64,000 nucleotides of DNA, from the IMG/VR virus record IMGVR_UViG_3300034196_000262; one strand, given 5' to 3'. The stretch comes from an uncultured virus (IMG/VR IMGVR_UViG_3300034196_000262). Lineage: Duplodnaviria; Heunggongvirae; Uroviricota; Caudoviricetes. A program made the translations under genes and the position numbers. Shown in pieces: positions 34,696-34,826 of the stretch (positions are counted from its first letter, which is position 1; each line of letters begins with the position of its first letter). Below the pieces are notes generated by a model, which worked only from the letters and a program-made list of their open reading frames with translations, ran no database searches and was not told the DNA's origin.

Positions 34696-34702
34696 AATGG
34701 TC

Positions 34703-34826
34703 TGCTTGTATTCGGAATTGAACCGAAAATTGACTGTGGAATAACTCTTTCAGCCCCGGAAGCCTTAGCTGCGATTGACTAGTATATCGCAACGATTATT
34801 CTTTCATCAACATGCCTATTACAAGC
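34703..34826 (-). ncRNA. tRNA-like RNA (acceptor stem + T arm, expanded middle)
   Basis: GCTTGTA/TACAAGC 7 bp stem, TTCGG-TTCAATT-CCGAA T arm, no D stem, branched domain instead of an anticodon arm. Confidence 0.65.

Follow-up and report, generated by a model that had tools for sequence, protein, structure and literature searches.

What do the tRNA-like RNAs of the phage T4 and T5 kind do, a question now 50 years old, and does a new locus offer a way into it? The T4 and T5 tRNA clusters carry stable RNAs, some of them annotated as tRNA-like, and a gene of comparable appearance lies in DNA of the uncultured virus IMGVR_UViG_3300034196_000262 (IMG/VR; Caudoviricetes), of which a stretch of 64,000 nt was analysed as a whole and is called the window here. 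The gene, which we call element A, is tRNA-shaped, occupies 34698..34826 on the minus strand, and is 129 nt long including its AGACCA tail. We ask whether its structure is real, whether it belongs to a known family, and what it might do.

Fold and operon of element A

The place (34826-34698, minus strand) and sequence of the element stand as the initial annotation gave them, and the structure drawn there is the minimum free energy (MFE) fold of this stretch (-32.2 kcal/mol, z -2.06; 2 of 200 shuffles were equally stable). The MFE fold consists of an acceptor stem (1-7/117-123), a T arm (100-116), two nested stems (16-21/93-98 and 26-32/82-88) and two hairpins (34-41/52-59 and 63-67/71-75). The acceptor pairs with probabilities of 0.88-1.0, the T stem with 0.64-0.9 and the first hairpin with 0.92-1.0, whereas the second hairpin reaches just 0.37-0.71. 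Two details of the earlier layout needed amending while its stems and hairpins held: the linker behind the acceptor is really 8 nt (AUAGGCAU), because G16 pairs with U98, and G34-C59 extends the first hairpin to eight pairs, one more than had been drawn. Two places in the window, element A and tRNA-Gly, combine a perfect T arm with a 7-bp acceptor next to it that closes within 40-200 nt; the chance mean is 0.03 per shuffled 64-kb window (60 shuffles).

Read along the minus strand, and compared with the three orthologues described below (L002, L029 and L035), the parts are as follows. The 5' acceptor strand GCUUGUA (34820..34826) is paired in all four sequences, with pair 3 changing from U-A to C-G in L002, and is followed by the 8-nt unpaired linker (34812..34819), which replaces the D arm and has three of its eight positions, AGG, invariant in the four. 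A long irregular arm (P2 and P3; 34729..34811) then takes the place of the anticodon and variable arms and closes a three-way junction. Within the junction lie hairpin P4 (34768..34793), in which three pairs change on both sides and whose 10-nt loop AUACUAGUCA (34785-34776) contains the palindrome ACUAGU, and a segment (34750..34767) made up of the junction UAA, hairpin P5 (GGC/GCU, with CCGG in its loop) and GA. The T arm UUCGG-UUCAAUU-CCGAA (34711..34727) has a canonical loop in 4/4 and two pairs that change on both sides in L002. The last segment (34698..34710) holds the 3' acceptor strand UACAAGC, the discriminator A (34703) and then GACC(A/G), with AGACC invariant in all four; the CCA of this tail is two bases out of register, and the last base is A in the window and L029, and G in L035 and L002.

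Element A sits in a unit with the order promoter, tRNA-Thr, A, B, C, tRNA-Gly, terminator, all on the minus strand. The unit is headed by a sigma-70-like promoter, TTGACT-17-TAGTAT (34945..34973), with TTGACT-17-TAAAAT at the same place in L002, and is closed by an intrinsic-terminator-like hairpin (34354..34369). ARAGORN places tRNA-Thr(UGU) at 34840..34915, which bears out the 13-nt gap to element A that had been reported, and tRNA-Gly(UCC), the last gene, at 34377..34450; in all orthologues the former precedes and the latter follows A. Between A and tRNA-Gly are two separate candidates for conserved structured RNAs, neither with a match in Rfam. Element B (34579..34693), proposed from its consensus fold, is 0.91 (L035) and 0.76 (L029) identical against 0.62-0.71 in the flanks; its stems vary in L029, one hairpin carries a GNRA cap, a hairpin loop GCAGUA could pair with a downstream UACUGY in a predicted pseudoknot, and its end, ACCA, is tRNA-like. 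Element C (34467..34568), apparently multi-branched, is put forward on its conservation, 0.91 in L035 and 0.90 in L029 (in the latter above that of element A), and on its closing stem, ACAC/GUGU in the window and UUAC/GUAA in L029, a change on both sides. Both B and C are absent from the corresponding place in L002, where G+C-richer hairpin-like stretches are found instead (L002 4446-4495 and 4715-4966), for which Rfam returned nothing over its cut-off.

Orthologues, replicon and conservation

Element A has three distinct orthologues, each between tRNA-Thr(UGU) and tRNA-Gly(UCC). L002, in the 437-kb record G001, was reached through a downstream neighbouring protein and so independently of the RNA; searches with neighbouring proteins reached G001 alone. 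L029 and L035 came from a metagenome scan with a pattern of the shared loops, in which four of eight hits were true loci, two of them identical to L002; since the search pattern was itself built from conserved loops, their constancy in L029 and L035 is by construction. Identity over element A is 91% for L035, 81% for L029 and 60% for L002; the replicons are distinct, their flanking DNA being merely 54-71% alike (62-71% and 54-60%).

Covariation among homologs, the check that had been proposed for this fold, was looked for in the four-sequence alignment: of the 37 pairs, 10 have changes on both sides, some of them in the long arm of L029; acceptor pairs 2, 3 and 6 also vary among the orthologues. 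Paired cells make up 89.7% of the alignment, a level reached by 0 of 500 shuffles, and controls with slid partners gave 25-48%; the set comprises four related sequences with the structure taken from one of them, and relatedness alone can beat the shuffle control. The folding energy of the orthologues is weak (z about -0.65 in all three), and in L035 and L002 the MFE fold differs from the model, the model fold costing 2.5-5.3 kcal/mol more than the MFE. In the MAFFT alignment the L002 arm is out of place, and it was paired by hand; it then has 14 pairs in a shifted register at the same overall length, 3.3 kcal/mol above the L002 MFE. We conclude that the structure of element A is real.

Where sequence is kept differs sharply between the parts of the RNA. 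Between the window and L002, the arm is identical at 9 of 38 positions, which is chance level, and the P4 stem at 5 of 16, against 9 of 10 in the P4 loop, 13 of 18 in the junction with P5 (12 of the 18 being invariant in all four sequences) and 5 of 5 in the tail; the linker AGG is also kept. The blocks invariant in 4/4, namely the linker AGG, the loop AUACUAGU, the junction UAA/GA, CCGG and the off-register tail AGACC, are the residues that the conservation pattern singles out. Because the loops are kept while the stems lose their sequence in this comparison, we read the pattern as that of a putative binding surface on a folded RNA.

The family is narrow. A covariance model, R1, scores 101-148 bits on the sequences from which it was built, and found no further member over 70 sources and then 5 and 14 whole records; its next-best scores, 27-32 bits, fall on ordinary tRNAs and one different tRNA-like RNA. 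Nucleotide searches of phage, plasmid and E. coli collections gave no relative of element A, and scans of GTDB genomes gave nothing. Pattern scans of IMG/VR yielded one true copy overall, that in G001: one scan returned a single coding match, another had one true match in 7, and a third one in 43, where several of the others are ordinary tRNAs followed by GACC, about as many as expected by chance on a rough estimate. A further IMG/VR scan gave at least 118 matches; among those listed, 40 distinct ones have both stems (34 ARAGORN tRNAs and 6 others), none with the insert of element A. Element A is thus a conserved family, undescribed within the collections searched and limited to four distinct sequences plus one variant from an RNA library.

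That variant comes from a set of 24 sequencing runs listed for the locus. Fourteen DNA runs among them hold most of the stretch, with labels naming peat and three coded organisms; near-identical copies of element A thus occur under three organism names, and in three DNA runs that were compared, the differences from the window inside A are confined to two unpaired positions. In one RNA run, X15, a 425-nt contig spans A, B and C with 40 other letters at a depth of 4.7, and a 134-nt contig covers most of A at a depth of 3.5. The changes listed for A in X15, a partial list with 12 difference rows outside it, comprise two double-sided changes shared with L029, one G-C to G-U and six at unpaired positions; they also break three pairs (21-93, 26-88 and 32-82). 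The contigs are without transcript ends, and at a depth of 3.5-4.7 they could derive from DNA, so that X15 shows the presence of a relative of A in one RNA library, not a discrete transcript. The missing RNA cover outside the operon in X15 carries no weight, since the flanks diverge; five further RNA runs (X16-X20) hold a small share of the sequence words.

As to the replicon, the window has 32.6% G+C and many paralogous proteins without a Pfam family, and the ORFs adjoining element A have none either. It is collinear with G001 at 65-79% nucleotide identity in long matches; large AT-rich contigs (520 kb, 604 kb and 1.86 Mb) carry the same locus, and members of the cluster to which a protein neighbouring A belongs occur on contigs of 1.84 and 1.92 Mb. 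Pfam searches with 75 long G001 proteins (of 81 listed, the other six being mostly window orthologues) identified tRNA synthetases, GatAB, TilS, two RNA ligases, DnaK and efflux parts; virion and core chromosomal families were absent from the 75. The replicon is probably a megabase extrachromosomal, megaplasmid-like element akin in type to the pMEGA plasmids of Enterobacteriaceae, and it may be a phage. As the main text of their description presents them, the pMEGA megaplasmids share megabase size, low G+C, many tRNAs, tRNA synthetases, RNA ligases, NAD genes, efflux and multi-copy protein families (bioRxiv 10.1101/2025.09.30.679422); the likeness is one of size, G+C and gene classes. The terms ncRNA, non-coding and noncoding occur 0 times in that main text (bioRxiv 10.1101/2025.09.30.679422), and the A-B-C block has no match in complete E. 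coli genomes. Two window genes, an invasin/intimin-like inverse autotransporter with Ig-like domains (58249-61773, plus strand) and a chemoreceptor (35921-37663), suggest a gammaproteobacterial host. Genes for tRNAs with a CUA (amber) anticodon are present in G001 and in a further record, G002 (L018 10448-10521; L026), and TAG ends 3 of 65 long ORFs of the window.

Comparison with known RNAs

Element A has no Rfam family at the gathering score or at E<=10, the single trace being a weak minus-strand echo of its T arm, and ARAGORN makes no tRNA call on it. Measured against the tRNA family (RF00005), it has the 7-bp acceptor and the T arm and lacks the D arm and an anticodon arm with a 7-nt loop, its own loops being 10 and 3-7 nt. 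It resembles a canonical tRNA in these two helices, in the U at -1 and in its place in a tRNA operon, and differs in being without U8, D stem and anticodon arm; moreover, none of the four orthologues has CCA in register, whereas all 26 ARAGORN tRNA genes in the parts of G001 analysed do. Nor is it an intron-containing tRNA: ARAGORN -i gave 0/4 at the default score, and with a lowered score gave 3/4 with three different anticodons and intron places.

The layout resembles that of tmRNA, whose tRNA-like part comprises an acceptor, a stem-less D loop with GG, a long helix 2 and a T arm. Element A shares with the tRNA-like domain (RF00023) the 7-bp acceptor, the stem-less D loop with GG, the T arm and the discriminator A, and it too has a long irregular helix where the anticodon arm would be. 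It differs in having no G3:U70, tag frame, pseudoknots or in-register CCA, and in being 129 nt long; the initial annotation was right to describe a tmRNA-like layout without G3:U70, pair 3 being U-A in three sequences and C-G in one. The one-piece, permuted and mitochondrial tmRNA families gave nothing at E<=10, ARAGORN -m gave 0/4, and the G001 copy is not among the RF00023 matches at E<=0.001.

Several other identities were considered and set aside. The bacterial Y RNA family (YrlA, RF02553) reaches 16 bits where its gathering score is 69, with most of the match lying on tRNA-Thr, and G001, a fragment, has no TROVE (Ro60) gene. A hammerhead-like CUGAUGA..GAAA string in L002 is absent from the other three sequences and comes without stem II. 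A group I intron reading of AAUCGCAGC fails in that the stretch is not kept in L002 or L029 and is too short. For an HDV-like ribozyme starting at the tail G, inspection by eye did not show the helices required, and Rfam reported none. The UAA before P5 and the GA after it resemble the UAA/GAN motif. A literature search, covering few subscription journals, returned no description of the A family or of a short alanyl-tRNA synthetase (AlaRS) on a mobile element, and no passage on the UAA/GAN motif.

The closest counterparts in kind are T4 rnaC (species 1 RNA, 139 nt) and rnaD and T5 RNA1 and RNA2, the last two annotated as 'tRNA-like stable RNA with unknown functions' (NC_005859). Like element A, these RNAs are 120-145 nt long, lie in a tRNA cluster, have a T arm with a closing helix and no ordinary anticodon arm, and are of unknown function; in T5, three such RNAs are grouped in a row, as A, B and C are here. 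They differ in having no sequence kinship to A (best BLAST matches of 9-13 nt, and at most 10.3 bits with R1, below ordinary tRNAs), and in detail: rnaC folds with two long arms, whereas A has one arm ending in a three-way junction, and T5 RNA1 and RNA2 keep a D-like arm, whereas A has no D stem. The hosts differ as well, T4 and T5 being lytic phages and A apparently residing on a megabase element. As a non-decoding tRNA-shaped gene in the tRNA cluster of a mobile element, element A is by its setting and T arm classed here as a new variant among the RNAs of the T4 rnaC and T5 RNA1-2 type.

The A family accordingly places a tRNA-like design of the T4/T5 type on an apparent megabase plasmid-like element, and its near-identical copies under three organism names could make it a testable entry to the question of what such RNAs do. 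If a partner were found, it would provide the first mechanism for tRNA-like RNAs of this kind; without one, A stands as a well-supported but narrow family.

A proposed role and its alternatives

On balance, we think that element A is probably a non-decoding stable RNA in which the tRNA half would be a handle for RNase P processing and stability and the junction domain would bind a partner. From the structure, conservation pattern and operon position observed above we infer the processing, a free RNA and the binding. The promoter, the terminator and the RNA-library contigs suggest that tRNA-Thr, A and tRNA-Gly share one transcript. The acceptor stem, T arm and linker GG of A would restore the upper half of a tRNA with its elbow, the GG likely docking on the T loop; host RNase P would cut before G1 (34826) to release A, and the tRNA-like ends would then protect it. 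That the top half with the linker GG provides an elbow for RNase P release and end protection is a part of the proposal we regard as likely. The RNase P-processable tRNA mimic first suggested for this locus thus survives as a tRNA mimic without an Rfam family, while its processing is plausible in the light of tRNA processing in general (PMC7954030). The working part would be the three-way-junction domain with which the long arm ends; P3 and P4 probably stack there and UAA/GA probably positions P5, and the invariant loops would face a specific partner, for which a protein of the element or the host is the likeliest candidate. Element A would then work as a tRNA-headed carrier of a binding module, probably uncharged.

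Other functions must be weighed against this one. An abundant tRNA look-alike could bind or distract host defence nucleases that cut tRNAs, and G001 does encode two RNA ligases, a polynucleotide kinase-phosphatase and several tRNA synthetases beside its 26 ARAGORN tRNAs, while the pMEGA report proposes the tRNAs of those megaplasmids as counter-defence against tRNA nucleases (bioRxiv 10.1101/2025.09.30.679422). A 7-nt core, UACUAGU with CUA at its centre, can even be picked out in the invariant loop, yet the loop is 10-12 nt long, lacks a U where U33 would be, and is separated from the core of the molecule by about 19 stem positions and a junction; therefore it cannot occupy the anticodon position, and the anticodon-nuclease decoy of the initial annotation, poor in loop geometry, is in our view unlikely. 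Its other suggestion, an aminoacyl carrier or tmRNA-like acceptor, would have A trimmed to A73, given CCA by a host enzyme and then charged, perhaps by the element's own 278-aa AlaRS fragment. The tmRNA-like layout, the invariance of G1-C72 and the discriminator A in 4/4, and the presence of a short AlaRS catalytic-domain gene in the window and, at 71% identity, in G001 speak for it. The idea is weak because no orthologue has an in-register CCA, unlike all 26 tRNAs of the related contig: the tail reads AGACC(A/G), two of the four ending in CCG. In addition, G3:U70 is missing and acceptor pairs 2, 3 and 6 vary, the AlaRS gene lies at a distance of 32 kb, its relatives on Rhizobium plasmids have metabolic genes as neighbours (one locus), and the G001 fragment has no SmpB or CCA-enzyme gene; we consider charging quite unlikely. 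A combined view, in which the tmRNA-like tRNA head with its junction module acts in trans, either neutralising a host defence that targets tRNAs or being charged without G3:U70 by the short AlaRS, possibly as a loop-loop dimer, is speculative, and we put it on a level with the decoy.

Three further readings fare worse. A purely cis-acting signal (a t-element), by which tRNA-processing enzymes would cut out the neighbouring B and C, would fit the position of A directly before B in the window, L029 and L035, but L002 has A without B or C, the flanking tRNAs bring their own cut sites, and a cut signal leaves the invariant distal loops unexplained, so that this is very unlikely. Self-association is no more attractive, and we rate it, together with a switch between the P4 loop and the P5 3' strand, as highly improbable: both invariant loops hold palindromes (ACUAGU in P4 and CCGG in P5) that could join loop to loop into dimers or rings, the loop duplex being worth -5.8 kcal/mol as free strands, though with just two G-C pairs in the palindrome; and the alternative pairing 46-50/72-76 is kept in 19 of 20 cells, one change being double-sided, yet 132 of 500 shuffles do as well, L035 has an A-C mismatch there, and the pairing competes with P5, which gains support from those changes too. 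Least credible of all is a DNA-level feature or relic, in which the loop would serve an internal promoter as its -10 box, or A would be a decayed tRNA carrying an insertion. A TTGATG-18-TATACT site does overlap the loop in the window, but promoter-like sites number 6 against 3.6 +/- 2.3 by chance, and L002 has none inside A although the loop persists there; as for a relic, the insert covaries across replicons and ARAGORN finds no intron tRNA at the default score.

The short AlaRS gene (window 2503-1605, minus strand; G001 108830) encodes 278 aa from a TTG start and comprises the catalytic part only. Upstream of it, in both the window and G001, are a ribosome site and a 7-codon frame, MSQLNAI, whose stop overlaps the AlaRS frame, an arrangement that makes a frameshift or re-initiation after an Ala codon possible. 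Relatives of this short AlaRS are found on Rhizobium plasmids and in a 635-kb phage record.

Other non-canonical tRNA-like genes came to light in the same material. In a 376-kb virus record (G003), a tRNA-shaped RNA directly after tRNA-Arg (L085 1501-1601) has the acceptor GCUUGAU/AUCAAGC, a T arm and two internal hairpins, ends in AACCA, and scores 26.7 bits with R1. Further examples lie in G001 and G002 (L020, at about 39540-39700 on the minus strand of G002, and L022, L016, L017 and L019), among them one that has a 139-nt interior and terminates in ACCA, and another whose D arm is shortened and whose anticodon is CUA. The pattern scans also returned unrelated leucine-tRNA-shaped genes (L077 501-634, L194 and L105) in which inserts replace the anticodon loop.
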